DNA of 64,000 nucleotides from Nanobdellota archaeon (GTDB lineage: Archaea > Nanobdellota > Nanobdellia > Woesearchaeales > UBA10107), in contig JBHPFU010000001.1 of assembly GCA_042571125.1 (NCBI GenBank), positions 85,698 through 149,697 on the forward strand. Reading direction: 5' to 3'. This document shows positions 5,330 through 50,615 of the stretch, piece after piece (the stretch's first letter is position 1; every line of letters starts with the position of its first letter). Made by a program: the position numbers and the translations under genes. The notes under the pieces were generated by a model that saw nothing but the letters and a program-made list of their open reading frames with translations, was not told the origin of the DNA and did not search any database.

Positions 5330-7624
5330 GTGATTATTTTAGAACATATTAAATGGTTTAAGGATATTGGAAAAGAGGATATCCCTTCTGTAGGTGGCAA
5401 GGGGGCCAATCTTGGTGAGATGTATAACATAGGTTTGCCAGTTCCAGATGGTTTTTTTGTAACAGCGCAGACATACAAAGAATTTATTGAAAAAACAAAA
5501 ATTAAAGACAAAATAACAGAGATTCTTTCAGGTTTAGATGTTGAAAACACAGAAGAACTGCAAAAACGAGCAAATCAAGTTCAAAAATTAATTGTAGAAA
5601 CACCAATCCCTCAAGACATCCGAGAAGATATTATAGAAGCTTATGAAGTTATGGGCACACACCATGATGTTGAAGCCGAAGCTAATCTGCCTTTTGTTGC
5701 GATTAGATCATCTGCAACTGCCGAAGACTTACCGACTGCTTCTTTTGCAGGACAGCAGGCAACTTTTTTAAATATTAAAGGAATGAGTGAGATTGTTAGT
5801 TCTGTTAGATTATGTTGGGCTTCTTTGTTTACAGCGCGCGCTGTTTATTACAGAGTGAAAAATGATTTTGAACATATGAAAGTTTTTATTTCTGTTGTTG
5901 TACAGAGAATGGTTGACTCTGACAAATCAGGGATAATGTTCTCTGTTAATCCTTCTACAAATAATCTTAATGAAATTGTGGTTGAAGCAGGATGGGGGCT
6001 TGGAGAAGCAGTCGTTTCCGGATCAATAAATCCCGATCTTTACATTGTTGATAAAGATTCTATGGAAATAAAGAAAAAAGAATTAAAAAAACAAGTTTGG
6101 GGGTTATTTAGAGATCCCGATACTGGAAAAAATGTAAAGAAAAATATTTCTGAGGAAGTAGAAGCAAAACAAGTTATTTCTGATGAACAAATTGTTTCAT
6201 TAGCTGAACTAGCTAAAAAAATTGAAGAACATTATGGATCCCCTCAAGATATTGAATTTGCAGTTGAAAAAAATAAAATTTATATTGTACAATCAAGAGC
6301 AGTCACAACAATAAAAAAAGAAGAAAAGGTCGAGGATGTTGAAGAGCATGGCGAGGTTCTTGTGAAAGGAGAAACTGCTTCATCCGGCGTTGCATCTGGT
6401 CCTGTCAAATTAATAAAAGAAATGGAAGATTTGAAAAAGATAGAAAAAGGAGATGTGATGGTAACAAAGATGACAACTCCTGACATGGTTCCTATTATGC
6501 AGAAAGCAGCAGCAATTGTAACAGATGAAGGAGGAATGACCTGTCATGCTGCTATTGTTTCTCGTGAGCTGGGAATTCCGTGTATTGTTGGTACTGAAAA
6601 TGGTACTCAAATTTTGAAAGAAGGAGAGATTATTACTGTTAATGCTACTCATGGAACTGTATTGAGAGGTGCTGTAAAGATTGAAGTTCCAAAAGAAGAA
6701 GTTAAAGAAACATCTGTTTGCGAGCCAGTTACAGCAACACAAGTCAAAGTTATAATGGATATTCCTGATGTTGCAGAAAAAGCTGCTTCTACAGGTGCGG
6801 ATGGTGTTGGTTTAGTTAGATTAGAGATTATGATTGCAACAGGAGGAGTTCACCCTGCAGAATATATCAGACAAGACCGCGATGAAGATTATGTTAATCT
6901 ATTAGCAGATGGAATTAGAAAGATTGCCAATGCATTCAAGGGCAAACCTGTTTGGGTTCGATGTAGCGATCTTCGTACAGATGAATATCGTAATTTACAA
7001 GGTGCAGATCAAGAACCAAATGAAACAGATCCTATGCTTGGATGGCATGCTATTCGTCGTTTATTAGACGAACCTAGAATTTTGAAAGCTGAATTTAAAG
7101 CTATCAAAAAATTAAAAGATGAAGGCGTTGATAATATAGGGGTTATGCTTCCTTTTGTTATAAGAGCAAGGGAAGTATCAAAAGCCAAAGAAATAATGAA
7201 GGAAGTTGGATTAGAAGGCGTTGAATTTGGGGTTATGATTGAAACTCCTGCATCATGCTGGGTTATTGAAGAGATAATCAAAGAAGGAATTGATTTTGTG
7301 AGCTTTGGAACAAATGATTTGACACAATTAACATTAGGTATAGATAGAAATAATCAAAGGATTGCACATTTATTTGATGAAATGCATCCTTCTGTTCTTG
7401 GTGAGATCGAGAAAGTCGTTGAAGTTTGCAAGAGGAATAATGTTAAGACCTCAATCTGCGGTCAGGCGGGCTCAAGACCAGAAATGGCTGAGTTTTTAGT
7501 TAAGATTGGTATTGATTCTATATCAGCAAACCCTGATGCGGTTCATCAGATAAGAGAAGTTGTTGCTCGCGAGGAAAAAAAGTTATTATTAGAAGCAGAT
7601 AGAGAAGAACTAGGACAAAACTAA
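5330..7624 (+). CDS. ppsA: Phosphoenolpyruvate synthase (pyruvate, water dikinase), complete three-domain enzyme
   Basis: ATP-grasp/PPDK_N motifs [10 protein letters not shown] and [17 protein letters not shown]. Swivel domain [21 protein letters not shown] (His406, codon 6545-6547). C-terminal PEP-binding barrel motifs [15 protein letters not shown] and ICGQAG. GTG start. Confidence 0.9.
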   Translation: [764 protein letters not shown]

Positions 7625-37100: not shown

Positions 37101-38288
37101 ATCCTGGTTGTTGCATATTTCTAATTGCTCGCAAACATCACCAAAACCGTTGTTATTCGAATCTAATTGATCTGAATTGGAATGTTCCGGACAATTATCA
37201 TCCTCATCTAGAATTCCATCGTCATCATTATCATCATCACAAACATCCCCGCAAAGATTTGTGAAAGGATTGCATCCTTCTATTGAACCATCACTGTCTT
37301 TTTGATCTGAATTTTTTATATCGGGGCAGTTATCGATTTTATCTCCTATTCCGTCAGCATCTTTATCTGTTCCATCAACTACTATTCCGAAATTCCACCG
37401 GGTCATGGATTCATCATTATACTTTACTCTTACATACCCGCCTTCGCCCCAACCAGAACCCCAGCTGTTTTTTATTATCCAATACTCTTCTGCGTCATCA
37501 TAACCAACAATAACCATTGCATGAAGTCCTGAAAGACCTCCTGTTGTATGAGAATAAATTCCTCCCCTATACGCATAAAAATCAGAATAAACATCAAAAT
37601 AAATAACAAGAGGTCCCCTTTCAATAAGATATTCTTTAATTTGATTAGAACTTATCCAGAGCTTGCCTGTAACTTTTTTTACTCTTCTTTCCCACCCAAT
37701 ACAAATATTACATCGGCCTCCGTAAATATCAGGAGTAGACTGGTGGTATGGTGCACAGGCTTCATCAACAACGCCTACATCTTTTATAAAATCAAGAGCA
37801 CGATAAGGATATCCTCCGCTACAACTCCCACAATCTACACAACAGTCAGATACTATGTGCTTCTCAGCTAAATCATAATCAAGATCAGGATTGTTTGAGT
37901 TTATATTAAACTGAGCTTCTACTGCGCTCAGAGTTGAAAAAGCCCAGCAACTTCCGCAATAGGCCTGGTTTTTTACAGAAGTCATCCAATCTTTTCCATC
38001 TTTATTTCTCCAGTTAAAAGAAGAAGGAACCGATGTAATGCTTTGGACACTAAAAAGTCTTGGCTGATCTAATTGCATTGTTGAAATTTCTTGTAATAAT
38101 TCAGATTCATCAATGCCGAAAAGTTTTTCTTTTTCTTCTTGCGATAAATCAAAAATATCGTTATGATCAGCAGTCCAGTCAGCACCTTTTTCATCTATTG
38201 CTTTCTTGATATCGTCTAATTCATCAGCAGATACAAAGCTAGCCAATAAAAGAAATACAAACACAATGGTTAGTTTATTGGCCCCCAT
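34101..38288 (-). CDS. Giant secreted multidomain protein: papain-like (C1) cysteine peptidase + thrombospondin type-3 Ca-binding repeats + TIM-barrel glycosidase-like domain + Cys-rich C-terminal modules
   Basis: Signal peptide MGANKLTIVFVFLLLASFVSA. C1 motifs QAYCGSCWAFS (Cys114, codon 37949-37947), HAMVIVGYD and NSWGSGWGEGGY. TSP3-like DxDxDGxxDxxDNCP repeats occur at least three times. GVNTIRTYS, WGIGSEV (Glu991) and LLGEFG (Glu1078) resemble a clan GH-A barrel. The last roughly 260 aa is rich in Cys repeats. Confidence 0.8.
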   Translation of the reverse strand: MGANKLTIVFVFLLLASFVSADELDDIKKAIDEKGADWTADHNDIFDLSQEEKEKLFGIDESELLQEISTMQLDQPRLFSVQSITSVPSSFNWRNKDGKDWMTSVKNQAYCGSCWAFSTLSAVEAQFNINSNNPDLDYDLAEKHIVSDCCVDCGSCSGGYPYRALDFIKDVGVVDEACAPYHQSTPDIYGGRCNICIGWERRVKKVTGKLWISSNQIKEYLIERGPLVIYFDVYSDFYAYRGGIYSHTTGGLSGLHAMVIVGYDDAEEYWIIKNSWGSGWGEGGYVRVKYNDESMTRWNFGIVVDGTDKDADGIGDKIDNCPDIKNSDQKDSDGSIEGCNPFTNLCGDVCDDDNDDDGILDEDDNCPEHSNSDQLDSNNNGFGDVCEQLEICNNQDDDGDGLIDNRLSNCACTQELEYVEDSVWLFPEHTRVDVNTGGGLFGEPTKSESEWFYVNYNGAPAHAEFEARQEAWSEFEMYHADRDGSYTGGRIFEYSNDGSSWSGNLDQGWYRLYVRVKKYWTFTTGATGRIKLDYYRKEFDLKDVIKNGTGPSPEVCDHGIDNDCDGEVDEVCDDADTDGLYDDEDNCPLISNYDQNDSDPLIGHNIGFESGDKQGWATDSYTDTSSYYSYSDVVDSESYWGNHSARIRQAHWGYEHIKQTVNLKQGSTISWALKGEGDISGVRDGNSGAYIRFAGNNGFVECWRFSPDYGSLRDCDLVHIVNDGWDGEWHEYTFTVSNYFITNGSGDVEIDTWFQNMDGIYTYYFDVEELLDGVGDSCDNCPYNYNPDQSDTDNDGIGDSCDPDDEFVRIVDGKIYVNKSLFLIKGVSYAPWISTTGPSPGQSQFPGEYEDITSFVTENGEVQITDYNGDGKIQTWEMIQYDLETMKSLGVNTIRTYSSGWWHDRNLNGVSEDEIIQGDLQEWVFDRIINFSENNNMKLIIGYWVQEEDFSGNYPWTTDLNDLDVAKDTIRKIVERYGDSPAVIAWGIGSEVYGSWNHAWFNWGVNIADYLNSLNDYVRSIDSSSKPIMYSKHPGSSANLNSINADIIAINARTSSAQELQGEFNISAPQGRAYLLGEFGQDLEDAEGQWNLSQQYAGGFFLEHNDVWWKGSNNLFGVVDTNRAKNLDRYNELNYLYTGHSECMTDNDCSHLDSGDYCEVDSVINNVGKCVFHSCKVETVTKETCDDACQDGSCIDFECSFNSDCGSDDWVNSPYCDGDEVWQQFREYDCVNPGTIDSYCTYDNEHQEKESCTDGCSDGSCIECQSQSQRVCYDGNAYWSDSCGNRENIIEYCSTDFLPGTSFCSGNTVYRYWQPQGCASGYCVAFNGYELREEETCPYKCVDGGCVECQPKLECTAWGPSTCPVFMNGILIDKQSRTCVETECGGGEWTETREC

Positions 38289-39575: not shown

Positions 39576-39773
39576 ATGAGTACTCAAATGAAGCGTAAAA
39601 TAACCCAAAATAAACACCAGTATAAGGTTAGCTTACCGGTTGAGTTACTTAGAAAGCTAGACTGGGATGGTTCTACTGAAATCAAATTCCATGAAGTTGA
39701 TACACCTCAAGGAAGAGGTCTTTTGATTCTTAAAAACAAAGATGAGGTTATGAAGTTAAACATTAGAAAATGA
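39576..39773 (+). CDS. Stand-alone AbrB/SpoVT-like small DNA-binding protein
   Basis: MKRKITQNKHQYKVSLPVELLRKLDWDGSTEIKF matches the N-termini of both PhoU-like genes. The stop overlaps the kinase ATG (ATGA at 39770-39773). The start may be the internal ATG at 39588. Confidence 0.55.
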   Translation: MSTQMKRKITQNKHQYKVSLPVELLRKLDWDGSTEIKFHEVDTPQGRGLLILKNKDEVMKLNIRK

Positions 39774-41431
39774 ATATAGAACATGAAAAGGATATAGAAT
39801 TCATCAAAGATATTCTTTCAGATAAATATCAGAATATTCAATACTTAAAAGAAGGTGGAACAAGAAGGACCTACCTTGCAGAATGGGGTCCTGGAAAAGA
39901 AAAAAGAGTTATTAAGATTGATAAAGATCCAGAAAGCCCAAGAGCAAAAAGGCACGTTGAAAGAGGATGTGTTACTGAGAGAGATATTGAATTCTTAGCG
40001 CAAATTAAAGATCCAGAACAGCATCGTCTAGTTAGACTTTGTGATTTTGAGGTAAAAGACGGAAGAACAATATCTGTAGAATCTCATTTTGAATCAAAAA
40101 CATTAGAAGAGACTGTTAAGGAAGAAGGAGTTCTTAATAGAAGAGAATTTGAAACAGCATTCTCTCATGTTATCGAAGGAACAAGATATCTTGATGAAAT
40201 TGGATTATATCATAGAGATGAAAAACCTTCCAATATACTTATCAAAAGAGATAAAGGAGGAATTGAAGCAAGAATTACTGATTTTGCAAATGCTTGTAAG
40301 AAATCACAGCCAAAGAGAAAGTATCTTCCGACAATGGGAGGTCATTTAATTACAGATCCTAATCTAATAGGAGAATTTACAGGAACAGAAACCAATTACA
40401 ATGAAACATCAGAGGTTTATGCTCTTGGTGTAGACATGTTCTACGCTTTAACAGGCAAGTATATCTTTGAGTATGATTACGATACTAGAACTGCAAGAGA
40501 TTTCAAAGGAAGAAATCTACTTAATGAGAATGGAAGACTTGACAAAGAGAAACATGAGAGAACATTAGAAGAAGCTTTAACGTTCTTACCTAGAGAATCA
40601 AGAAAGTATTCTGGAATAATCAAGAACTGTTTAACTCTTGATGATACGGTTAGATATGATTCAGTACATGAGCTTTCAAAAGATTTCAAAGATAAAAGCG
40701 ACCAGATAAAAGCAATGAAAAGAAAATATCTCGCAGGAGCAGGAGTAGCAGCTTCTATTTTAGTATTGCTTGCAACTCTTGGTACGGGCAAAGTAAAAAA
40801 TATAGAAAAATATGATGCTGTGAGACAAGAACAGGTAGATAGATGGTCTAGTTACAATTCAGATAGATATCAGGATATTTTTTCAGATGCATATGATCAT
40901 GCAATAAGAGCGTTCTCAGATGGAAAGCTGGACAATAAATTAAAATTTAATCAAAGAGATAAATTAATTGATGAAGTCTCTGAAAAATATGCTCTAGATT
41001 CAAGATTGATAAGAGATATTCTTGAAGTTAATAGACTTTACGCTGGAGAAGATACTAAATATGGTGGCAGAGGAAGAGCATCAGATGTTAATATATTTGA
41101 TCCATTCTTGACTCATCATTTTGGAGATGATCTTGGAGTAATTGACCCTGTTGAAAATCTAGAAAGAGGAGCAAAAAGATTATCAGAGTTACTTAAAAAA
41201 CATAAGGGAGATGAGAAGAAAGCACTTATCGAATTTTATTCGATTCAACCAAAAAAAAGTACGTTTGGTATGTCTTGGAGGTATGGTACTTTTAGTGATA
41301 GTGAAAGAGAAACCACAGAAAAAGAAGCAAAGATGTTAGCATGGAATGTTTTAAATGGTGGATGTAAATGGGAAGGGCACGGAACAATGCACCCGTATCC
41401 ATATCTCGATTTAACTCCTAAAGATTTCTAG
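39770..41431 (+). CDS. Membrane-anchored eukaryotic-type Ser/Thr protein kinase with extracytoplasmic C-terminal domain
   Basis: VIKIDK (beta3 Lys). Catalytic loop YHRDEKPSNILI (HRD codons 40211-40219). ITDFANA is a DFG-to-DFA variant. SEVYALGVDMFYALTG fits subdomain IX. One TM helix, YLAGAGVAASILVLLATLGTG. About 210 aa follow outside the membrane. Confidence 0.75.
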   Translation: MNIEHEKDIEFIKDILSDKYQNIQYLKEGGTRRTYLAEWGPGKEKRVIKIDKDPESPRAKRHVERGCVTERDIEFLAQIKDPEQHRLVRLCDFEVKDGRTISVESHFESKTLEETVKEEGVLNRREFETAFSHVIEGTRYLDEIGLYHRDEKPSNILIKRDKGGIEARITDFANACKKSQPKRKYLPTMGGHLITDPNLIGEFTGTETNYNETSEVYALGVDMFYALTGKYIFEYDYDTRTARDFKGRNLLNENGRLDKEKHERTLEEALTFLPRESRKYSGIIKNCLTLDDTVRYDSVHELSKDFKDKSDQIKAMKRKYLAGAGVAASILVLLATLGTGKVKNIEKYDAVRQEQVDRWSSYNSDRYQDIFSDAYDHAIRAFSDGKLDNKLKFNQRDKLIDEVSEKYALDSRLIRDILEVNRLYAGEDTKYGGRGRASDVNIFDPFLTHHFGDDLGVIDPVENLERGAKRLSELLKKHKGDEKKALIEFYSIQPKKSTFGMSWRYGTFSDSERETTEKEAKMLAWNVLNGGCKWEGHGTMHPYPYLDLTPKDF

Positions 41432-42337
41432 TTATAAAAACAAGCCCATCAAAGGACTATTTGCTAAGTAAATATTTCTGGCAGCGATTGTTAAGTGTCC
41501 AATAATAATATTTTCTTTTCCTTTTATTGTTGATAACAAATTATATGCTTTTTTGTATGTTAATTCCTTTTCTTTATCATGAATTTCTTCTAATAACTTA
41601 ATATCTTTCTTTAGGTATGCTTTTTTTAGCAATTCAAATAGATTATTTCCATCTTTTAGAAAATTTAATGTTGATTTTGAGATTTTTACCTTATTTTTAT
41701 CTAAAAATCGATTAATATGGTAGACTTCTCTCTGTGCGTGTATGATTAATGTAAGAAAAGCCCAGTATAACTGAGCATTTTTCTCTGTTATCTGTTTTTT
41801 TGCGATAACTCTCCTACAAAAGTTATCATACTGTTGTATTCTTGCTTCTGTTTCTTCATAATCTTCGATTGGAGCCTTATTTGTGAGTCTTTGCTCTGTT
41901 ATTTTGATTAATTCAGTTATATTGTATAGTATTTTTTGAAGTAAAACATTAAATTGATCTGAAGAAGGTTCGGTTATATTTTCTATTATGCAATTATTCT
42001 GCTCTTTTTTGATTATTTCAAAACCTAACAATCTAGTTTTTACAACATTATTTATTATCTTAAATTGTTTTTCTTTTTCAAAAGAAACTGTAACTTTGTC
42101 ATAACCTAATCTATACGTGTTTGTTAATATAGTTCTTATTGAAGATTCTGTTAGTCCTGTCACTTTTACTTCTGTGCTTGTTTTTGTTTTAATTTTTCTT
42201 GGAGAAATAACTAATTCATTTTCAGCTTGTTCTATGTTGATGAGGTTTCCTGCTTTTAGCTTCATTTCATCTACCCATTTTTTTGGAAGGTAGATAGTAT
42301 AACCTCCTCCGCCTTGTTTTATTAGCTTTCTTTCCAT
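41432..42337 (-). CDS. AbrB/SpoVT-domain + PhoU-like regulator, second copy
   Basis: MERKLIKQGGGGYTIYLPKKWVDEMKLKAGNLINI plus a helical PhoU-like remainder. The probable ATG is at 42337; the track ORF extends to 42400. The stop abuts the kinase stop with zero spacing. Confidence 0.6.
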   Translation of the reverse strand: MERKLIKQGGGGYTIYLPKKWVDEMKLKAGNLINIEQAENELVISPRKIKTKTSTEVKVTGLTESSIRTILTNTYRLGYDKVTVSFEKEKQFKIINNVVKTRLLGFEIIKKEQNNCIIENITEPSSDQFNVLLQKILYNITELIKITEQRLTNKAPIEDYEETEARIQQYDNFCRRVIAKKQITEKNAQLYWAFLTLIIHAQREVYHINRFLDKNKVKISKSTLNFLKDGNNLFELLKKAYLKKDIKLLEEIHDKEKELTYKKAYNLLSTIKGKENIIIGHLTIAARNIYLANSPLMGLFL

Positions 42338-42473
42338 AGATGAAATAGTGGTTTCTTTATATATAAATCTTTGGTTTTTGATATTAATGATATCAATCAT
42401 ATCAGAAAGATATTAATCTTAGTTATTGAAATAACTTCATAGTGACAAACGGGGGTTTGGTGGAGAAAAGAAA

Positions 42474-43313
42474 ATGACAAAGATACACGTAGCAACAGAT
42501 CAACATTATATTGATAGTATGGAAAGGATGCTTAAACAGTTTGGATTCAATAAGAGCTATCACTTTCTTGGGGATATAACTCCACATTATGAGACAAAGG
42601 ATGATGAGACTAACCTAAAAGCCAGAGTAAATGAAATCAAAGAAAAATATCCTCGTGCTTCTGGAAATCAAGTATATGATCACATGATCACAGATGATAT
42701 TGGAAGAGCTCTTGAAGATTATGAAAAAATTCCTAGAAACACTGCAAGAAGGATAGGATTTATCGAAGAAAATAAGTCTAATTCAGTAGTTTCAATTTCA
42801 GGCAATACAGATTTAATATTTCATGGTATGCTTGAAACATTGTCAGATGTAACTGGAATCGGGACCCCTACAAACCTTGATTTACTTAGAGGTACAAAAG
42901 CCATCAAGTTTCAATACAAAGAACCTCTTCATTGGGGATGGGATGAAAGCACAAATATTTATGAAATTCCGTTCTCTGAAGACGAGTTTAGTACAAAACG
43001 ATTAGCTGATTTATTTTCATCTTCTGTACATCGTTATAGAAATCATCTGATTCTAACGCATGAAAATCCACATCCAGAAGGTGTTGGAATAAAAAGAGAA
43101 GTAAAAATGCAGAAAACTTTAGATTCTTTTATTGATACAATACGTGATGCAAACAAAAATTCAAACATAGCTCTTGCATGCGGTCATCTGCATGTTTCTG
43201 GAGATCCTTACGAATACAGAGGGATAACAATCGTTCCAATTGCTCCAGACGAAGTCATGAAATATGATACTAAAAAAGGAGATTTCAAGGTCGTAAAAGC
43301 AGATAATATGTAA
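42474..43313 (+). CDS. Calcineurin-like metallophosphoesterase
   Basis: Five motifs occur in the canonical order: IHVATDQH (DxH), FLGDI (GD), ISGNTD (GNHD variant), LILTHENPH and ACGHLH (GHxH). Confidence 0.6.
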   Translation: MTKIHVATDQHYIDSMERMLKQFGFNKSYHFLGDITPHYETKDDETNLKARVNEIKEKYPRASGNQVYDHMITDDIGRALEDYEKIPRNTARRIGFIEENKSNSVVSISGNTDLIFHGMLETLSDVTGIGTPTNLDLLRGTKAIKFQYKEPLHWGWDESTNIYEIPFSEDEFSTKRLADLFSSSVHRYRNHLILTHENPHPEGVGIKREVKMQKTLDSFIDTIRDANKNSNIALACGHLHVSGDPYEYRGITIVPIAPDEVMKYDTKKGDFKVVKADNM

Positions 43314-43323
43314 GGAGAATAAA

Positions 43324-44829
43324 ATGAAAGAGGAATGGAAATACCTTTGGAAAGCAAGACCTTATGATATTATGCTGATGGGTTTAGCAAGCGATTCTGT
43401 TACTCAAGGTTTTAAAAAGACATTTGGGTATGAAATCACAGGACTGGCCGTACCTTTTGAGAAAGGAGTTTCAAGCTGGGCAATTAAAAAGAAAGAGTTA
43501 ATTGAAGCTTGCGATGTACTATTTAATAAACTAAAAACAAAAGATTTCTTTGAAAATAACAAAAAAGAAGTCATTGATTATTGCGAAAAGCTAAACAATT
43601 TATCTGAAAAAGCCAAAAGAACAAGTCTAAATGAGCTTTCAGATGAAGAACTTATTAACTTGTTCAAAGAATTCAAGATATTGTTCAAAGAATTTTATGT
43701 CAATGCATTCGTTCCAATCATATTAGAATATGGAGGAAACATTCTTTCTGATAAGTGTGAATTATTCATAAAAAAGAGATTAGAAGAAAAAGAAATCCAA
43801 GATAAGTTTGGGGATTATTTTATGGCATTGCTGACAAGCCCAGAGTTATCAGGAAATGCAAAAGAAGAACTAGGGTTTTTGAGAGTTGTTAAGGAGTTTA
43901 CAGATAATCCGGAACTTGTTGAGCTTTTCAAATCAGATGAAGAAACAATAAAAAACAATATAACTAATTTTGAACAGGCAAACCAAGCAATAAAACAGCA
44001 TATGAATGAATATGAAGTAACTTCTTTTGATCTTGTAGCAACAATTGTTTGGGATAAGAATTATTATCTTAACAGGGTAGCTGAGACTTTAAAAAACATC
44101 GATATTGATAAGAAAATTAACGAGATTGAAACAAAAGGAGAAGTTCTAACAAAAGAACAAGAAAGGATAACATCTGAACTTGATTTTTCTCCAGAAGAAA
44201 AAAGAATGCTAGAGATTACAAGAGGGTACATGGGATTAAAAGAGTACAGAAGATGGGTGATAACCGAGAGTTACTACAGAATTTTTAAGATTATGGAAGA
44301 GACTGGAAAAAGAGTTGGTATTGACAAAGAAAAGATTGGATACCTTACACCAGATGAGTTTGAACAAGTTTTTGAAAAGAAAGATGAATTCAAACAAATT
44401 GTTGATAAGAGAGCAGATAAGAGCGTTGCGATTAGTTCTGAAGGAAAAACCACGTTTTATTATGATTTTGAGCTTGGAGAAAAAGAAGAAAAAGTTTCTG
44501 AAGACATTTCTGAATTAAAAGGAACCCCTGCTTGCTCAGGTAATGAACGAGGAGTTGTTAGAGTTATTAATAATCTTGAAGAGGCAGAGAAGATGAACCA
44601 AGGAGATATTCTAGTTTCAGTAGCAACCTGCCCAGAACTTGTTCCAACAATGAAGAGGGCAGCAGCAATTGTCACAGACGAAGGCGGAGTAACATGTCAC
44701 GCTGCGATTGTTTCTAGAGAACTTGGAGTTCCATGCGTTATCGGAACAAAAATAGCTACAAAAGTCTTCAAAGACGGAGATTCTGTTGAAGTTGATGCAA
44801 AAGAAGGAGTTGTGAGGAAGTTAAAATGA
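43324..44829 (+). CDS. Orphan PEP-utilizing-enzyme swivel (phosphohistidine) domain protein, paralog 1, with novel helical N-terminal domain
   Basis: C-terminal LKGTPACSGNERGVVRVI...GDILVSVATCPELVPTMKRAAAIVTDEGGVTCHAAIVSRELGVPCVIG (His459, codon 44698-44700). No GGKGANL or RSSATAED ATP-grasp motifs. No C-terminal barrel. AAGGAG lies 6 nt upstream of the ATG. Confidence 0.8.
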   Translation: MKEEWKYLWKARPYDIMLMGLASDSVTQGFKKTFGYEITGLAVPFEKGVSSWAIKKKELIEACDVLFNKLKTKDFFENNKKEVIDYCEKLNNLSEKAKRTSLNELSDEELINLFKEFKILFKEFYVNAFVPIILEYGGNILSDKCELFIKKRLEEKEIQDKFGDYFMALLTSPELSGNAKEELGFLRVVKEFTDNPELVELFKSDEETIKNNITNFEQANQAIKQHMNEYEVTSFDLVATIVWDKNYYLNRVAETLKNIDIDKKINEIETKGEVLTKEQERITSELDFSPEEKRMLEITRGYMGLKEYRRWVITESYYRIFKIMEETGKRVGIDKEKIGYLTPDEFEQVFEKKDEFKQIVDKRADKSVAISSEGKTTFYYDFELGEKEEKVSEDISELKGTPACSGNERGVVRVINNLEEAEKMNQGDILVSVATCPELVPTMKRAAAIVTDEGGVTCHAAIVSRELGVPCVIGTKIATKVFKDGDSVEVDAKEGVVRKLK

Positions 44830-46340
44830 AAAAATGGACTAGAATAGCAGAGGATAGCGGAGATCTTTTCCCTGTTACATTCATGTATGAATGTTTAGTT
44901 GAAAGAGCAGAAGAGGTTCTTGGAGCGAAAGTTAATAACTGGATGCATGTCGGAAGAAATAGTATTTGGGAAGTTGCTGCAGATTTAGACAATTGGGACA
45001 TGGTCGGTTCAGCAGCATATAAAAAATTAAAACAAGATAAAGGATTCTTGAAACAAATTAGAGAAAATACTCTTAATGGCTGCAAATTAATGATAGAGAC
45101 TTCTGAAAAGATATACAAAACAGACCTATCAAAACTAGCCAATAAACAATTATGGGATTTATACCAAGAATACAGACAAAAAGACAAAGATATGTATATC
45201 TGGGGCATGGTCCCGGTTCTTATTGATTTCGAGGTTACTAGATTATCTGATGAGATAAGAAGCATAATTAAAAGTAAGCTAAACGAAAACGAACAAAATC
45301 TTTTGCCAGACTATTTTATCACATTAACAACATCAAAAGAAGATACGCTTATGAAACAGGAAAAATTATCTTTCCTAAATGTAGCAAAAGAAATATCAGA
45401 AAATCAAGAAGCAAAAGAGCTTTTCAAAAAATCAGTAGATGAAATAAAAGCAGAACTTTCCAATTTCAAAGAAATTGATGAAAAAATAGAAGAACACACA
45501 AAAAACTACTGTTTTTTCGGTTACGGATACTTAGGTCCTGCATGGAAGAAAGAATATTATCTTGAATTATTGTCAGGATTCATAAAAGTAGATAATCCTG
45601 AAGAAAAGATTAAAGAGATTGAAGAAGAAAAACAAGCAACCGATAGAAAAAGAGAAGAGGTAATCAGAAAATTAAAGCTTACAGAAGATGAGCTTTACTT
45701 AATGGATGCAGGTGCTGAATTTGGATTCCTAAAGGTAAACAGAAAAGATTTGCTCTATAAATCTTACTATCATATGAACAACTGGCTTGAAGAGGTTTCT
45801 AAAAGATTTGGGCTTACAATAACTCAACTAAGACATATGATTTCTGAAGAAGTAAAAGATATGATTCTTGATAACAAACTTCCAGATAAAAATGTATTAG
45901 ACCAGAGAATAGAGTTCTATCTTTTTATTTTGAAAGACCAGAAATTAACAATTCATCACGGAGATGAGGCAAAAAAACTTCATGAGGAGTTAATGGAGAA
46001 GCAAGAAGATATAGACTTGGATGAATTGAAAGGAGACTGCTCTTGCCAAGGTCAAGCAAGAGGAGAGATTAAGATAATTAAAACAGTCGAAGATATGGAA
46101 AAGATGAACCAAGGAGATATTCTGGTTAGTCCTGCTACAAATCCTAATCTTGTACCTGCAATGCAAAAAGCAGGAGCAATTATAACCGATGAAGGAGGAA
46201 TTACATGCCACGCCGCTATTGTTTCTAGAGAATTAGGAGTTCCATGTATTACTGGAACAAAGATTGTCACAAAAGCATTCAAAGACGGCGATTTGGTTGA
46301 AGTTGATGCAACAAATGGAATAGTACGGAGAGTAAAATGA
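44826..46340 (+). CDS. Orphan swivel (phosphohistidine) domain protein, paralog 2
   Basis: GDILVSPATNPNLVPAMQKAGAIITDEGGITCHAAIVSRELGVPCITG (His462, codon 46209-46211). The N-terminal domain aligns with paralog 1 (DYFITLTTSKE versus DYFMALLTSPE). ATGA overlap with the upstream gene. Confidence 0.8.
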   Translation: MKKWTRIAEDSGDLFPVTFMYECLVERAEEVLGAKVNNWMHVGRNSIWEVAADLDNWDMVGSAAYKKLKQDKGFLKQIRENTLNGCKLMIETSEKIYKTDLSKLANKQLWDLYQEYRQKDKDMYIWGMVPVLIDFEVTRLSDEIRSIIKSKLNENEQNLLPDYFITLTTSKEDTLMKQEKLSFLNVAKEISENQEAKELFKKSVDEIKAELSNFKEIDEKIEEHTKNYCFFGYGYLGPAWKKEYYLELLSGFIKVDNPEEKIKEIEEEKQATDRKREEVIRKLKLTEDELYLMDAGAEFGFLKVNRKDLLYKSYYHMNNWLEEVSKRFGLTITQLRHMISEEVKDMILDNKLPDKNVLDQRIEFYLFILKDQKLTIHHGDEAKKLHEELMEKQEDIDLDELKGDCSCQGQARGEIKIIKTVEDMEKMNQGDILVSPATNPNLVPAMQKAGAIITDEGGITCHAAIVSRELGVPCITGTKIVTKAFKDGDLVEVDATNGIVRRVK

Positions 46341-46834
46341 CTTCTAACCTTTTCATGGATTACCTTCCTGTTCTTCATCCTGGGAACACAAACGCTTTAG
46401 AATTAGTAAGAAATTCTGTGGATGTAACATATTCTGTTGGCGCCGAAAGAATACTCGAAGATAATACGTTGAAAAAAGAGATTTATTTTGCAAATATAGT
46501 CAATAACAACGTATATCAAAATTCAGAAAAAGCTTGGATTTGTGACGAGAAAAGGTTAGGCCAAGACAAGACTTTAAAGGGATTAGCGAAGTTAATATTA
46601 GACCACGCTGATCAAAAGACTTTTGAGATAGTAAGAAGACACTATGTTCAAAAAGATAAACGTATGTCTACAGATGCTATTTTTCATATTCATTCTTACA
46701 AATGGGGATTGCCTGAATTTAGAATACATTCAGCAAGAGATCTTTCTACAAAGGAAGTTAGAGAACTCGTAAACAATATCTACTCATCCATTCGAAAGCG
46801 CATGAAAAAAGACAAGGATTACGGAAAACGATAA
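46337..46834 (+). CDS. Hypothetical protein embedded in the swivel-domain operon
   Basis: 165 aa. ATGA overlap with paralog 2. No motif recognised. Confidence 0.5.
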   Translation: MTSNLFMDYLPVLHPGNTNALELVRNSVDVTYSVGAERILEDNTLKKEIYFANIVNNNVYQNSEKAWICDEKRLGQDKTLKGLAKLILDHADQKTFEIVRRHYVQKDKRMSTDAIFHIHSYKWGLPEFRIHSARDLSTKEVRELVNNIYSSIRKRMKKDKDYGKR

Positions 46835-46835
46835 A

Positions 46836-47180
46836 ATGACAGAAATCCTAACACTAGAAGAAATTGCCTTGCTGGCCAAGAAAGTTGAGAGGTGGAATAA
46901 TACCAAAACTTACGATGATGATTATTGTATTTTTGAAGGTTCTGTTGATCAATTTGCAATTCAAGTTAAAAGATACAGGATTGGTGTTAATTATGAAAGT
47001 GCAATGATATCCTTACATAAAGATTCTAGATTTGTTTGCAGTCAAGCATCACCAACCCTTTTTGAAATATATCAAAAAGCATTTGGGAGCTGGTTTATAC
47101 CAATAAAAACTAAAACTCCAAACATAATAAAACAAAGAAACCAAGCTATTGAGAGAGCAAGAGAGGTTCTAGCTGGATAA
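46836..47180 (+). CDS. Hypothetical protein embedded in the swivel-domain operon
   Basis: 114 aa. Starts 1 nt after the upstream stop. No motif recognised. Confidence 0.5.
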   Translation: MTEILTLEEIALLAKKVERWNNTKTYDDDYCIFEGSVDQFAIQVKRYRIGVNYESAMISLHKDSRFVCSQASPTLFEIYQKAFGSWFIPIKTKTPNIIKQRNQAIERAREVLAG

Positions 47181-47221
47181 AAACACTAAATTTTTAAAAT
47201 TAACTATATTCTTAATTTAGA

Positions 47222-48628
47222 ATGAGCGATGAATACATATTCATGTGGTGTCAAAAGCCTCTTTTGCCTAGTAATCATGGCACTGCGGTGGCATTAAAAG
47301 GAGGAGCAGAGGCCTTAGACGTGTTTGCGACAGCACATATTTTGCAGTATTATGATGGAAAACTTCTTTCAACATATATCATGAAAAAAGACATAAATGA
47401 TTGGAAAGCAAATAAAAGCATAAAATTCCTTGATCCTTCTTTTTACAAAAAATATTCTGAAAAATATGAACAAGAAAGCAAAAAATGGTGGGAATGGATA
47501 AGAGAGGTAGAAAAAAAGGATTATTCCAACTTAACAAAAAAGGAGTTAATAGAAGATCACGAACTCTTTTCAAGATTCATGGTAAACTCAATTTCTTTTT
47601 TTGGAAGCACAAGACCTGAATTTACATATGCTGTTGAGCAAAAATTAGAAGAACACCTAAAAAAATATTTCCGAGACGACTGGGGAGACGCATTTACTGT
47701 CCTAGCAACCTCTAGTGAGGAGGATGAAGTACAAAAAGAACAAAAAGATTGGAAAATACTTGTAGAATCAAACCCTTCAGACGAATCTTTGTTAAATCAT
47801 ACGTCCAAATACCCTTGGCTTGTTCTAGGAACATTTTCTGAGGAAGAAGCATTGAAGCATTTAAAAGAATTAATGAAAAATAATGAAGAAGAAGCCGTAA
47901 AAAAAGAAGATATAGTTCAGAAGAAAAAAGAGATTTTGGATAAAATGGAAGAAGACGTAAAATACTTATCAACTTTTTTACAAGAACAGTCAGTAAGAAG
48001 AATGCATATCAAAGCTTATTGGGCCGGTTGTTATTATCTTGCAAGAAACTTGCTAAATGCAATAGCAAAAGAAATTGGTCTAGAAGTATCAGAATTAATT
48101 GAATTCCTGCTTCCTCCAGAAGTGGATGAGATTCTAAAAGGAGAAAAAACAATAGATGATATCCCTCTTGAAAAAAGAAAAGAAAAATACATAACCTATT
48201 TTAATCCCGGAGAAGAGATAGAGATAACAGAAGGAGAAGAAGCTGAAGTGCTTTTCAAGCAAAAGATCAAGCCACCCGAAAAAAAACTAGAAATAAAAGG
48301 CCAGACCGCATCAGTAGGAAAATGCACAGGAAAAGTCAGAATAGTAATGCCAGGAGATACAAAGATGTTAATGAATGACATAAAAGAGTTTCAAAAAGGA
48401 GATGTTATGGTCACTTCAATGACTCAACCAAACATGATCCCCATAGTTAAGAAAGCAGCAGGAATTGTTGCCGATGAAGGAGGAATTACAAGTCATGCAG
48501 CGATTATTGCAAGAGAATTCGGAATTCCATGTATTGTTGGATGCCTTGAAGCAGCACAAATATTTAATAATGGAGATATTATCGAAGTAGATGCTGACAA
48601 CGGTGCTGTGAGGAAGATAAATGAATAA
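47222..48628 (+). CDS. Orphan swivel (phosphohistidine) domain protein, paralog 3
   Basis: GDVMVTSMTQPNMIPIVKKAAGIVADEGGITSHAAIIAREFGIPCIVG (His425, codon 48494-48496, with the T-S-H variant). The N-terminal domain is related to paralogs 1 and 2 (DAFTVLATSSE). Confidence 0.8.
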   Translation: MSDEYIFMWCQKPLLPSNHGTAVALKGGAEALDVFATAHILQYYDGKLLSTYIMKKDINDWKANKSIKFLDPSFYKKYSEKYEQESKKWWEWIREVEKKDYSNLTKKELIEDHELFSRFMVNSISFFGSTRPEFTYAVEQKLEEHLKKYFRDDWGDAFTVLATSSEEDEVQKEQKDWKILVESNPSDESLLNHTSKYPWLVLGTFSEEEALKHLKELMKNNEEEAVKKEDIVQKKKEILDKMEEDVKYLSTFLQEQSVRRMHIKAYWAGCYYLARNLLNAIAKEIGLEVSELIEFLLPPEVDEILKGEKTIDDIPLEKRKEKYITYFNPGEEIEITEGEEAEVLFKQKIKPPEKKLEIKGQTASVGKCTGKVRIVMPGDTKMLMNDIKEFQKGDVMVTSMTQPNMIPIVKKAAGIVADEGGITSHAAIIAREFGIPCIVGCLEAAQIFNNGDIIEVDADNGAVRKINE

Positions 48629-49718
48629 AAAATACGAGTTTCATGCAAGAGCAAGCGATATTCCTTTTGTTATATCCGATATTTTTTTTAGAGACGGCAG
48701 TTATGGTGATGCAGAATCAATCACCACTTTTGAAAAAGGGCTTCTTTCATTGTATTGGTCTGAAGATGGCTACAAACAAACAGCAAAAATAGGCGAACAA
48801 ATGCTTGATGAAACTTTTTTTGAAAATCTAATCAAGCAAATGGATGAAATAGAGAAAAAAGTAGATAACTTCTCTTTTACTCTTAAGGAAGACAAGATCA
48901 TTGACGAATGGAAACTATTTGATGAGATAATCTTTGAATATAGTATAGTATATAGATTTTGTGAAGAACCTTTCTTAAGATCTATAGAAAAAAAATTATT
49001 AGATAAGTATGATGCTGACATACTTAATGATGTGATGCAGAATCCTGAAAAGGCTAAAGATATTGGATTCAATGATCAAGAAAAAAAGATTATTAATATT
49101 CTAAGAACTGTTGGCGAGAAAAAACTGTCTTTGCATCTAAAAAATGAAAAATTCTTTGATGATCTCGCTTTATTTATAGAACATCTCTCTAAAAAAACAG
49201 AAATTTCAACAGAAGATCTATATTTCCTAAAATCAGATGAGATATCAAATCTTTTAGAAGGTAAAAAGATTGACTTAAGCCTAGCAAAGGATAGAAAGAA
49301 CGGCTGCGCATTTTCTAATGGGCCAGATTCAGAATATTTATGTGTTACTGGTAAAGAATTCCTAGAACTAAAAGAGCTAGTTGAACCAAAAATCAATGAA
49401 ATCAAAGGTTTTTCTGCAAACAAAGGAAAAGTTAAAGGAAAAGTAAGAGTTCACCTAAGCTGGATCAAGTCAGTTGATTTTGATCAAGGAGATATAATTG
49501 TTACTGGGATGACTAATCCTCAGATGTTCCCGTATCTTAAAAAAGCTGCTGCAATCGTCACAGATGAAGGCGGAATAACTTGCCATGCTGCTATTATTTC
49601 TAGAGAATTAGGAATTCCTTGCATAATCGGAACCAAAGTAGCAACCCAACTTCTTAATGATGGAGATAGGGTAGAAGTAGACGCAGATAAAGGAATTGTT
49701 AGAAAAATTATTGTTTAG
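48621..49718 (+). CDS. Orphan swivel (phosphohistidine) domain protein, paralog 4 (shortened N-terminal domain)
   Basis: GDIIVTGMTNPQMFPYLKKAAAIVTDEGGITCHAAIISRELGIPCIIG (His322, codon 49584-49586). Overlaps paralog 3 by 8 nt. Confidence 0.8.
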   Translation: MNKKYEFHARASDIPFVISDIFFRDGSYGDAESITTFEKGLLSLYWSEDGYKQTAKIGEQMLDETFFENLIKQMDEIEKKVDNFSFTLKEDKIIDEWKLFDEIIFEYSIVYRFCEEPFLRSIEKKLLDKYDADILNDVMQNPEKAKDIGFNDQEKKIINILRTVGEKKLSLHLKNEKFFDDLALFIEHLSKKTEISTEDLYFLKSDEISNLLEGKKIDLSLAKDRKNGCAFSNGPDSEYLCVTGKEFLELKELVEPKINEIKGFSANKGKVKGKVRVHLSWIKSVDFDQGDIIVTGMTNPQMFPYLKKAAAIVTDEGGITCHAAIISRELGIPCIIGTKVATQLLNDGDRVEVDADKGIVRKIIV

Positions 49719-49961: not shown

Positions 49962-50615
49962 TCAAAAGGGGAGCAATTTTCTTATATTTCGCCTTAAAGA
50001 GAGCCGTTTTAACCTCTGTTCAATATCAGAAGCGTTCTCAAATTCTTTTTCCGCTTTTCTGAACTTAGAAGAATGAAATAAATTCCTGCCTTTATTTGCA
50101 GAGAACTTGTGCTTCTTATGAAGCATTTCGTGATACATGACATAGTCGAGTAATTCTTCTTCTTGCAATGCGGATGAGATAGATATCCTATCTGTTTTGA
50201 AATCATAAGAACCTAGTTTTGATGTTGAATTAGCACCCCACTCAAGATTTGGAACATCTATTAAATCATCAAAATATCTTTCATTTACTCTATTGAATGA
50301 TTCCAGTAAATCTGGATTAATATTTGTTTTTGGAATAACTTGAGGGAGTTTTTTAACAAATGTGTTGTACAAGTCCATATTAAGAGTGTTTTTCTTTGCC
50401 TTGAAAACTTTAACTAATAATTCTTGGATTAAACCAATCTTTATTTCATTTGAAACACGATACCACTTTTTACTTAGTTTAACTTGAAGCGAATTGATAG
50501 AAACAGAAATATTTGCTCCGTAATCATTAAATTGATCAGAATATTTTACTTTTGTAGAATAATTGAATTGCCGATTAGGAAAAAGTTCCCTGAATGCTTT
50601 TTCTATGATGTCCAT
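49962..50615 (-). CDS. SprT-like / DUF45-type zinc metalloprotease
   Basis: YVMYHEMLHKKH (HExxH) lies in the C-terminal third. Size and context fit. Weak family call. Confidence 0.45.
   Translation of the reverse strand: MDIIEKAFRELFPNRQFNYSTKVKYSDQFNDYGANISVSINSLQVKLSKKWYRVSNEIKIGLIQELLVKVFKAKKNTLNMDLYNTFVKKLPQVIPKTNINPDLLESFNRVNERYFDDLIDVPNLEWGANSTSKLGSYDFKTDRISISSALQEEELLDYVMYHEMLHKKHKFSANKGRNLFHSSKFRKAEKEFENASDIEQRLKRLSLRRNIRKLLPF

Follow-up and report, generated by a model that had tools for sequence, protein, structure and literature searches.

A putative array of acceptor subunits of a split RPH-family dikinase and a phosphatase-like partner in a Nanobdellota archaeon

A seven-gene operon in a 64-kb stretch of a Nanobdellota archaeon genome (hereafter the window, 64,000 nucleotides of a 323-kb contig) encodes four proteins that end in the phosphohistidine swivel domain of PEP-utilizing enzymes. 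This raises the question of where these domains acquire phosphate and to what they pass it. The sequence-only reading of the locus had regarded the four proteins as carriers without partner domains in an undescribed phosphotransfer system. With moderate confidence we instead interpret the operon as coding for four H-type (acceptor) subunits that belong to a split small-molecule dikinase of the rifampin-phosphotransferase (RPH) family, accompanied by a phosphatase-like partner.

Operon layout and swivel domains

All seven same-strand ORFs reported for positions 42474–49718 were found to be present (Table 1). The junctions from g1 to g7 measure, in order, 10, -4, -4, +1, +41 and -8 nt, and rechecking bore out both ATGA overlaps (44826, 46337), the gap of 1 nt (46836) and the overlap of 8 nt (48621). 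An AAGGAG string assigned to the 10-nt spacer between g1 and g2 was placed correctly in part, as GGAG lies inside the spacer while the full string shares bases with the g1 stop codon. The 41-nt spacer between g5 and g6, which is AT-rich, had not been listed. No match to g4, and no significant match to g5, was found in Pfam, NCBIfam, PHROGs, PADLOC, PDB or any of 94 fetched loci. PADLOC models of known anti-phage defence systems matched none of the seven operon proteins; the Ser/Thr kinase beside the operon matched generic kinase models in that collection.

Table 1. Genes of the operon and other features of the window considered here
Feature	Position	Strand	Length (aa)	Description
PpsA	5330..7624	+		Sole PPDK_N ATP-grasp in the window by sequence; fallback candidate donor for the modules
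AbrB/MazE-domain protein ("PhoU-like")	41432..42400	-	322	Divergently transcribed; PF04014 1.8e-6; possible regulator, weak link
g1	42474..43313	+	279	Member of a rare family whose invariant motifs resemble those of metallophosphoesterases; the array's probable phosphatase partner
g2	43324..44829	+	501	Canonical H-type module with an RPH-like domain for substrate binding (residues ~1-385) and a swivel, His459
g3	44826..46340	+	504	Canonical H-type module, His462
g4	46337..46834	+	165	ORF without detectable relatives; ATGA overlap couples translation to g3
g5	46836..47180	+	114	ORF without detectable relatives
g6	47222..48628	+	468	Divergent H-type module; swivel His425 intact
g7	48621..49718	+	365	H-type module, N-domain shortened (about 247 aa); swivel His322 intact

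Pfam analysis located PF00391 in g2, g3, g6 and g7 at the C-termini only (E = 2e-24, 1.5e-24, 1e-25 and 2e-26, respectively). The catalytic histidine codons at 44698, 46209, 48494 and 49584 (CAC, CAC, CAT and CAT) fall within GG[VI]T[CS]HAAI[VI][SA]RE[LF]G[VI]PC, and the residue is invariant in relatives across 77 aligned homologs. These swivel domains had been described as near-identical; the paralogs are in fact only 43–68% identical to one another in this region. PF01326 and PF02896 were absent from all four proteins at E values up to 1, in agreement with the earlier claim that they contain neither an ATP-grasp domain nor a PEP-binding barrel. As neither is present in cis, the histidine must be charged in trans.

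N-terminal domains and their characterised relatives

A profile built from the N-terminal domain alone matched residues 337–733 of P0066, a protein composed of PPDK_N, central and swivel domains, with a probability of 100% and E = 1e-42 (hhalign), the matched region being the central domain. The N-domain alone also matched the NCBIfam RPH model (E = 8e-4), and residues 134–361 of g7 aligned to positions 637–866 of the 869 in PRK06241 (NCBIfam). A sequence-only profile search of the PDB with the N-domain gave no match. The AlphaFold (AF2) model of g2 had a pLDDT of 94.6, and its six best PDB matches in Foldseek were all Listeria RPH (RPH-Lm), with E = 5e-15 to 4e-12 over 458–561 alignment columns and a sequence identity of about 16–22%. 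On the strength of these profile and model comparisons, the N-terminal 250–390 aa of g2, g3, g6 and g7 are identified as the substrate-binding domain of RPH-type dikinases. The view of the four proteins as carriers without partner domains is thus overturned by homology of their N-terminal regions to an already characterised enzyme family.

In the sequence alignment, upon which the residue mapping is based, K306-E307-Y-R309-R310 of g2 aligns with R666-E667-Y-P-K670 of RPH, and the near-invariant family motif K-x-x-R-K falls on the RPH phosphotransfer residues. Across the module family, K306 and R309 are each found in 70 of the 77 sequences in their alignment columns. The family residues K306, R309, K310, E326 and R330 are retained in g3, which in the alignment has K...K without the Glu at the equivalents of RPH R666/E667/K670; g6 and g7 deviate at these positions. 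While g2 and g3 are 37% identical across residues 67–501, the N-domains of the four modules are mutually only 14–24% identical, that of g6 being 16–19% identical to those of g2 and g3. Several near-invariant family residues (R309, E326 and R330) are missing from the g6 N-domain, which counts against the dikinase interpretation. Both g6 and g7 could be modules that have degenerated or taken on a specialised role.

Because an RPH-type substrate-binding domain precedes the swivel domain, the sequence and model comparisons indicate that the four proteins are counterparts of the H subunit in the two-component dikinases HpeHI (Rhodococcus), CreHI (Corynebacterium) and phenylphosphate synthase PpsAB (Thauera/Aromatoleum), in which an ATP-grasp I subunit charges H in trans (PMC12167813). 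The designation of the system as undescribed does not hold, each protein being the equivalent of a published H subunit. The split itself is the same, with an RPH-like substrate domain and a phospho-His swivel in one chain and, in relatives of the window array, a separate ATP-grasp. In contrast to the one H and one I of the published systems, the window array contains four tandem H modules (up to ten in relatives) whose N-domains have diverged to the extent given above, with a swivel of the PpsA type carrying the T-(C/S)-H motif. The window operon lacks an I gene, its partner gene is phosphatase-like and not one of the catabolic enzymes, and arrays of this kind are hosted by DPANN archaea and Patescibacteria as opposed to degraders of aromatic compounds.

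RPH-Lm (PDB 5FBS/5FBT/5FBU, 5HV1) and its fused relatives PigC, RedH and HapC share the substrate-binding and swivel fold of the g2 model (Foldseek E = 5e-15). In RPH, however, all three domains are joined in one chain that begins with an ATP-grasp, a domain that the window proteins lack, and nothing points to rifamycin as a substrate of the window modules. PEP synthase and pyruvate phosphate dikinase have a homologous swivel with the same catalytic His motif, whereas the window modules are without PPDK_N and PEP-utilizers_C and differ from them in the fold of the second, substrate domain.

According to the mechanism that we propose, the N-terminal helical domain of an H subunit, a homolog of the rifampin-binding domain, would bind the substrate while the C-terminal swivel His would carry the phosphoryl group. 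A separately encoded ATP-grasp (I) of the PPDK_N type would pyrophosphorylate and then phosphorylate this His from ATP. The swivel would then swing back to its own N-domain and hand the phosphate to the bound acceptor via the K306/R309/K310 site, the presumed equivalent of RPH R666/K670. Four very different N-domains would in turn mean four different acceptor specificities.

Phosphoryl donor and arrays in relatives

No stand-alone ATP-grasp was found in the 64-kb window, where a query with stand-alone I subunits matched PpsA as the only ORF. This PpsA was confirmed by Pfam as a genuine three-domain enzyme (PF01326, 7e-112; PF00391; PF02896, 5e-77). Tandem arrays of 2–10 modules each recur in the sampled DPANN and Patescibacteria loci, and in 22 of 79 GTDB loci, among them 5 of the 22 archaeal loci, a conserved stand-alone PF01326 (I) gene is found no more than 10 kb away. 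The other 57 have none within that distance, which, like the absence from the window, counts against the split-dikinase interpretation. Such genes stand beside or inside arrays of five H (L006), of six and four H on either side of I (L011), of nine H (L030, Woesearchaeota) and of seven H (L071). Single ORFs were also observed that fuse one I to 2–9 swivel domains, one ORF of 3,768 aa having one ATP-grasp and nine swivel domains. These I genes at multi-H arrays and the I-H fusions were taken to support the view that several H share a single I.

The modules could instead be phosphotransferases that operate independently of ATP-grasp, moving phosphate from small molecules bound by the N-domain to His and on to other acceptors, with g1 supplying or removing phosphate in a lineage devoid of an ATP-grasp partner. 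A precedent is HpeH, which by itself phosphorylates acetovanillone with 4-phosphoacetophenone as the donor (PMC12167813). Arrays are accompanied by several families of phosphohydrolases (MPE-like, His_Phos_1, HAD and HD), and no I gene was found in the window or in any other locus with a g1-family gene (L001, L002, L013–L015, L046 and L070). Most of these loci are short contigs, however, and the missing I gene there therefore means little. Moreover, I genes and I-H fusions exist in archaeal relatives, and the swivels of g2 and g3 share 59–67% identity with their counterparts in CPR modules located beside a dedicated, highly conserved I subunit. We accordingly regard this alternative as unlikely.

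A further possibility is that the ATP-grasp of PpsA charges the four modules in trans, so that the array draws on the PEP synthase of central metabolism. PpsA contains the only PPDK_N domain in the window, and the module swivels keep the PpsA-type motif GGxT(C/S)HAAI(V/I)(S/A)RE and are 50–54% identical to the swivel of this genome's PpsA. Against this, the identity of g2 and g3 to the CPR module swivels is higher, the tethered swivel of PpsA itself would compete, and the gene is unlinked at a distance of 35 kb. The PpsA grasp domain is furthermore just 38–39% identical to dedicated I subunits, as compared to 58–61% for the I domain of a three-domain relative. Charging by PpsA is consequently considered quite improbable. 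For the split dikinase, the I subunit would most likely be a dedicated protein of ~312 aa encoded elsewhere in the genome, with the PpsA ATP-grasp as the other option.

The g1 partner and flanking genes

The sequence-only reading had named g1 a five-motif metallophosphoesterase. The motifs are indeed present, in canonical order (D9-x-H11, G33-D34, G110-N111-x-D113, H196 and G237-H238-x-H240), and are invariant in four close homologs, but the protein is recognised by neither Pfam nor NCBIfam nor a PDB sequence search. Across 29 members of the g1 family D9, G33-D34, H196 and H238 are all invariant, while H11 is not conserved in this wider family. Six of the 29 matched Metallophos_2 below threshold, the best at E = 1.2e-4 with 22.6 bits where the cutoff is 27. 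Two matched Metallophos, likewise below threshold, one of them as a full-length match; the matches were co-linear. A profile search of the PDB with the g1 family returned 3rqz at E = 0.46, and the AF2 model of g1, with a pLDDT of 43.5, leaves the fold unconfirmed. Thus g1 has the same metal-ligand motifs in the same order (D-x-H, G-D, G-N-x-D, H and G-H-x-H) as calcineurin-like metallophosphoesterases (Metallophos, Metallophos_2), but it matches no curated model above threshold. Its placement in the superfamily rests on motif order and on the sub-threshold matches of distant relatives.

The g1 family is rare, with 33 representatives among 1.84 billion proteins. In 7 of 8 loci a g1-family gene adjoins swivel modules, and relatives keep the order of g1 with two or more swivel paralogs. 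His_Phos_1, the commonest Pfam family among 148 array neighbours, flanks the arrays of L006, L008, L010 and L012, and histidine-phosphatase-like ORFs number 5/242 near modules versus 0/243 far from them (p = 0.03). As g1 stands where other arrays have histidine phosphatases, it was likened to the occupant of a phosphatase slot and, from sequence and gene context, is the probable phosphatase partner of the array. In the proposed dikinase system this divergent metallophosphoesterase-like protein would probably act as a hydrolase on the phospho-His or on the products once phosphorylated. That a phosphatase should accompany a kinase has no ready explanation and speaks against the dikinase interpretation, as do the lack of a curated match above threshold for g1 and its poor structure model.

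The flanking genes that had been called PhoU-like carry a well-supported N-domain of the AbrB/MazE type (E = 2e-8 and 2e-6), whereas the PhoU match is weak and confined to one gene (E = 0.08). Their proposed functional link to the operon gained slight support from one other locus, L014, where a homolog of the 322-aa AbrB/MazE protein (E = 5e-24) adjoins a g1-family gene. The adjacent Ser/Thr kinase is genuine (Pkinase, 8e-20, Pfam), but the link proposed for it was not seen in any other locus. A different reading is that the modules are regulators or sensors, whose N-domains bind ligands and whose phospho-His state governs gene expression or partner proteins without phosphorylated products being made. 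AbrB/PhoU-like genes lie beside g1 in the window and beside its relative in L014, regulators of the TrmB and HTH_10 types are repeatedly found next to arrays, some homologs have N-terminal HTH domains (P0064, HTH_5; P0074), and P0086 is annotated by JGI as a predicted DNA-binding transcriptional regulator. This is nevertheless highly unlikely, given that Pfam finds no DNA-binding domain in the four window proteins, that residues aligning with the RPH phosphotransfer site are conserved across most of the family and that up to ten paralogs per array suit a battery of enzymes better than a set of regulators.

The original model of pure phospho-His carriers in a trans-acting relay to some target, with the metallophosphoesterase as terminal phosphatase, is barely credible and largely refuted already, for although it accords with the conserved His, the lack of a cis ATP-grasp or PEP-binding domain and a stand-alone double-swivel protein of 210 aa in L002, the N-terminal regions belong to a domain already known for substrate binding and phosphotransfer, and Pfam and NCBIfam reveal neither an HPr-like or receiver-type acceptor protein in the operon nor, for a PTS-type (EI/HPr) relay, the PEP-binding EI C-domain.

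Although the genomes of Patescibacteria and DPANN archaea are very small, many of them give 5–15 kb to tandem module arrays. These are evidently important, and no paper describing such arrays was found in the literature. Tentatively, the window array may be one case of a large "one charger, many acceptors" phosphorylation system common to Patescibacteria and DPANN, with a single highly conserved ATP-grasp subunit, up to ten rapidly diverging acceptor modules (sometimes fused, >3,700 aa) and a phosphatase partner. Here, a new metallophosphoesterase-like family would replace the usual histidine phosphatase and the charger would be unlinked or possibly dispensed with.

Identity as an H subunit turns the labels "PEP-utilizing enzyme" and "hypothetical protein" into a testable hypothesis, namely that ATP, I and an H module yield a phosphorylated acceptor. 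The g1 family, if a phosphoesterase, would add a new branch to these enzymes, one whose functional context is defined. A conserved charger, hypervariable acceptor domains and I-H poly-fusions would make up a natural system in which to study the diversification of a swivel-domain kinase's substrate range. If the wider system is real, genome-reduced episymbionts could phosphorylate a wide and shifting range of small molecules derived from hosts or competitors.

Swivel and substrate-binding domains of the four paralogs

Each of the four swivel proteins of the operon (g2, g3, g6 and g7) was found by Pfam to carry one PF00391 domain, located at the C-terminus (E = 2e-24 to 2e-26), with no signal for PF01326 or PF02896 up to E = 1. 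The sequence-only reading was right on the four His codons and on the GG[VI]T[CS]HAAI motif, and the ORF that it took for PEP synthase (PpsA) is a true three-domain enzyme according to Pfam. The swivel domains had been described as near-identical; however, identity among the four paralogs is 43–68%.

In NCBIfam, the N-terminal regions of the four proteins were co-linear with the C-terminal two-thirds of the models for rifampin phosphotransferase (RPH), PigC, RedH and PRK06241. As the swivel domain could have dragged this alignment, the N-domain was examined by itself. An N-domain-only sequence profile matched no PDB sequence, RPH included, and residues 1–384 of g2 alone gave a weak match to the RPH model (E = 8e-4). 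When the N-domain alignment was compared, profile to profile, with P0066, an 859-aa relative having PPDK_N at residues 17–323 and a swivel domain at 774–844, the match had a probability of 100%, an E of 1e-42 and spanned residues 337–733 of P0066. The AlphaFold model of g2, based on 77 homologs, reached a pLDDT of 94.6 and a pTM of 0.89, and its six best matches in a fold search of the PDB were all Listeria RPH (E = 5e-15 to 4e-12, 458–561 alignment columns), counter to the earlier view of these proteins as carriers without partner domains. Based on the profile-profile comparison and the fold matches, the N-terminal regions of g2, g3, g6 and g7 are assigned to the RPH-type substrate-binding domain at the level of sequence profiles and predicted structure.

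The second phosphotransfer in RPH-Lm is performed by Arg666 and Glu667, with Lys670 (PMC4844700). In a sequence alignment these residues align with a near-invariant K306-x-x-R309-K/R310 of the module family, which reads K-E-Y-R-R in g2. The near-invariant N-domain residues are all kept in g2 and g3; g6 is without R309, E326 and R330, and the N-domain of g7 is shortened.

RPH homologs split in two components are known, namely HpeHI, CreHI and phenylphosphate synthase PpsAB (a different enzyme from PpsA), whose H subunit combines a substrate-binding with a swivel domain, the ATP-grasp domain forming the I subunit (PMC12167813). The four proteins have the same architecture as these H subunits and on that account fall within a characterised family, so that the proposal of an undescribed system of orphan carriers did not hold; the module type itself is already known.

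Module arrays and their probable ATP-grasp partners

Homologs of g2 number in the thousands, are ~500 aa long, are annotated as "PEP-utilizing enzyme" or "phosphohistidine swiveling domain-containing protein" and originate from Micrarchaeota, Woesearchaeota, Nanoarchaeota and Patescibacteria. Among homologous loci fetched from other genomes (L-numbers), tandem arrays held five modules in L006 and L008, 5+1 in L009, ten in L011, nine in L030 and seven in L071. A stand-alone PF01326 gene of ~312 aa adjoins or lies within the array in L006, L011, L030 and L071, that of L030, an archaeal I subunit, being located at 16588–17520. In a scan of 79 GTDB loci, by which the archaeal I subunits were detected, 22 loci had a stand-alone PF01326 gene at most 10 kb from a module (5/22 under archaeal, 12/43 under bacterial and 5/14 under doubtful labels). 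Several arrays of typical CPR/DPANN type (L029, L031, L041, L042, L044 and others) sit on MAG contigs for which the given labels, 'uncultured Gammaproteobacteria' or 'uncultured Methanosarcinales', look doubtful.

A homology search with a stand-alone I subunit as query gave identities of 68–93% over the best 120 matches (P0156–P0275), all of them PF01326-only proteins of ~312 aa; those with a source name were bacterial, mostly Patescibacteria, and most carry none. The named sources include Moranbacteria, Falkowbacteria, Saccharimonadales and other bacterial lineages. This ATP-grasp protein is far more conserved than the modules it presumably serves. N-domains were 14–24% identical within the window and 20–28% identical in all pairs between loci; no orthologs were found between arrays, and none was clear even against L001 and L002, whose g1 is 44–48% identical.

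ATP-grasp and swivel domains also occur fused. The largest such ORF is that of L043 in the table below, and further ORFs join one ATP-grasp to two to four swivel domains; smaller fusions were seen in L084, L089, L020 and L064. From these fusions it is argued that one ATP-grasp may serve many modules. The L002 locus, which is of g1 type, contains a second gene group with a double swivel. The end of its 311-aa protein looks like the C-terminal helix found in module N-domains, a match that is not significant (E = 0.13), and the 311-aa and 353-aa proteins were rejected as split-off N-domains on the account of no detectable homology.

No stand-alone ATP-grasp was found within the 64-kb window, which belongs to a 323-kb contig. 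The modules might shuffle phosphoryl groups independently of ATP, and HpeH without its partner also shuttles phosphate from phospho-product to substrate (PMC12167813). Alternatively, the window's own PpsA could charge the modules in trans. Against this, the grasp domain of PpsA is 38–39% identical to I subunits, compared with 58–61% for P0066, and g2 and g3 have swivel domains nearer to those of CPR modules (59–67%) than to that of PpsA (50–54%). This pattern of sequence identities makes a dedicated I partner a likelier charger than PpsA.

Coordinates of features in the window and in homologous loci
Location	Strand	Feature
5330–7624		PEP synthase PpsA
34101–38288	-	1,395-aa protein, predicted secreted; by eye, papain-like cysteine-protease motif CGSCWAFS, many Asp-rich calcium-binding-type repeats, Cys-rich C-terminal repeats
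39576–39773	+	65-aa AbrB-like ORF, 4-nt overlap with start of kinase
39770–41431	+	553-aa Ser/Thr kinase; predicted membrane-spanning stretch, long C-terminal region
42474–49718	+	Operon g1–g7; junctions 10, -4, -4, +1, +41, -8 nt
44698, 46209, 48494, 49584	+	Swivel His codons of g2, g3, g6, g7
47181–47221		g5–g6 spacer, 41 nt, AT-rich, contains TTTTTAAAATTAACTATATTC
49962–50615	-	SprT-like zinc metalloprotease-domain protein (PF10263, E = 8e-7), directly downstream of histone gene
L002:4850–8649		391-aa uncharacterised protein; 210-aa tandem double swivel without N-domain; then uncharacterised 311-aa and 353-aa proteins
L014:7640–12036 (GCA_014729675.1)		360-aa g1-family gene, insertion-bearing subfamily, directly after 786-aa response-regulator receiver-domain protein; 318-aa AbrB/PhoU-like gene adjoins; no swivel module in examined locus DNA
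L043:6191–17494 (Candidatus Woesearchaeota JAFGGS010000004.1)	+	Uninterrupted 3,768-aa ORF: one PPDK_N ATP-grasp, then nine swivel domains, RPH-like N-domain segments interspersed

Gene 1, phosphohydrolases and genomic surroundings

The metallophosphoesterase motifs read in g1 (D-x-H, G-D, G-N-x-D, H, G-H-x-H) are present and invariant in four close homologs, but no library recognises the protein as a metallophosphoesterase. The family is rare, with 3 homologs in a word-indexed search of 5.8 billion proteins and 33 representatives among 1.84 billion by exhaustive search. In 29 family members D9, G33-D34, H196 and H238 are invariant and H11 is variable; Metallophos_2 matched 6/29 and Metallophos 2/29, all sub-threshold and co-linear, and no other Pfam family recurred. 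The family profile gave one metallophosphoesterase match among PDB sequences, which was non-significant, and the AF2 model of g1 (4-sequence alignment, pLDDT 43.5) was unusable. Taken together, g1 is probably a very divergent metallophosphoesterase.

A pattern search with a narrow alignment returned no g1 relatives in GTDB representative genomes, whereas scanning loci taken from the same collection with an HMM revealed divergent family members in L046, at 26% identity, and, weakly, in L070. Genomic linkage between g1 and modules is strong: a module abuts the g1-family gene in the window, L001, L002, L013, L015, L046 and L070, with L014 as the exception, and in L001 two g1-type genes are followed by eight modules. 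A test for relatedness to g1 was negative for a 286-aa protein of L009 and for the accessory proteins in L008 and in L012.

Where an array lacks g1, the position of that gene is often occupied by a member of the histidine-phosphatase superfamily. Such genes pass the Pfam threshold in L006, L008, L010 (which has two) and L012; a protein of L011 has the RHGER motif and no Pfam match. In an independent census, covering 148 ORFs no more than 1.5 kb from a module, the commonest family was His_Phos_1 (7), ahead of HAD (5) and HD (4) phosphohydrolases, and as an internal control histidine-phosphatase-like ORFs numbered 5/242 near, 0/157 at intermediate distance and 0/243 far (p = 0.03). Given the g1 linkage, the placement of histidine phosphatases, the census and the control, a phosphohydrolase partner is a recurrent, not universal, feature of the arrays. 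Other families recurring within 1.5 kb of modules in the 79 GTDB loci are phosphate acetyl/butyryl transferases (PTA_PTB), with five members and a best E of 7e-95, and, with three members each, APH-family kinases and NTP_transf_2/Polbeta nucleotidyltransferases. TrmB or HTH_10 regulators adjoin other arrays, and a regulatory role of the modules is a further alternative.

The seven same-strand ORFs were recovered at the coordinates first read. The g5–g6 spacer could contain an internal archaeal promoter; if one is present, two transcription units, g1–g5 and g6–g7, may exist. Genes for aRF1 (E = 3e-73 against archaeal release factor 1) and, with E = 7e-17, for a histone of HMfA type follow close downstream of the operon and identify the window, with a G+C of ~32–34%, as archaeal. 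The small proteins g4 and g5 are tightly coupled to g3, had no detectable relative in libraries, the PDB or 94 fetched loci, and are not conserved in relatives' arrays; in L046 the corresponding place is taken by four other genes, all unannotated. Both were negative when tested as ATP-grasp fragments. Neither PADLOC nor PHROGs placed the operon proteins in a defence system or among phage families.

The Ser/Thr kinase next to the operon is real by Pfam, and no linked kinase of this kind was seen in any other locus examined; its kinase domain gives generic matches to the defence-system models PD-T4-6, MAD6 and PglW. Of the neighbours called PhoU-like, the AbrB/MazE domain is solid in both, but the PhoU match is weak and confined to one gene (E = 0.08). 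A homolog of both genes (E = 2.5e-31 and 5e-24) adjoins the g1-family gene in L014, the single such case. Features like those of the 1,395-aa protein are typical of large DPANN surface proteins.

Proposed phosphotransfer

In the literature searched, no description was found of the tandem-array organisation, of a one-charger, many-acceptor logic, of a phosphatase partner, here from the new and rare g1 family, or of the module distribution across DPANN and CPR. The pure phospho-His relay first suggested is a further alternative, largely at odds with the RPH-type N-domains.

Module architecture and residue conservation are observed; the rest of the mechanism is inferred, as follows. The ATP-grasp subunit would charge the swivel His from ATP, and the swivel domain would then swing back to its own N-domain and phosphorylate the acceptor bound there, such that four different N-domains would provide four different specificities. 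Phosphate would be removed by g1 from phospho-His or from the products. The histidine-phosphatase and PPP-type metallophosphoesterase superfamilies both include reported phospho-His phosphatases (SixA, PGAM5, PP1/PP2A) and, by analogy, a role of the phosphatase partner in "reset" of the modules is therefore plausible.
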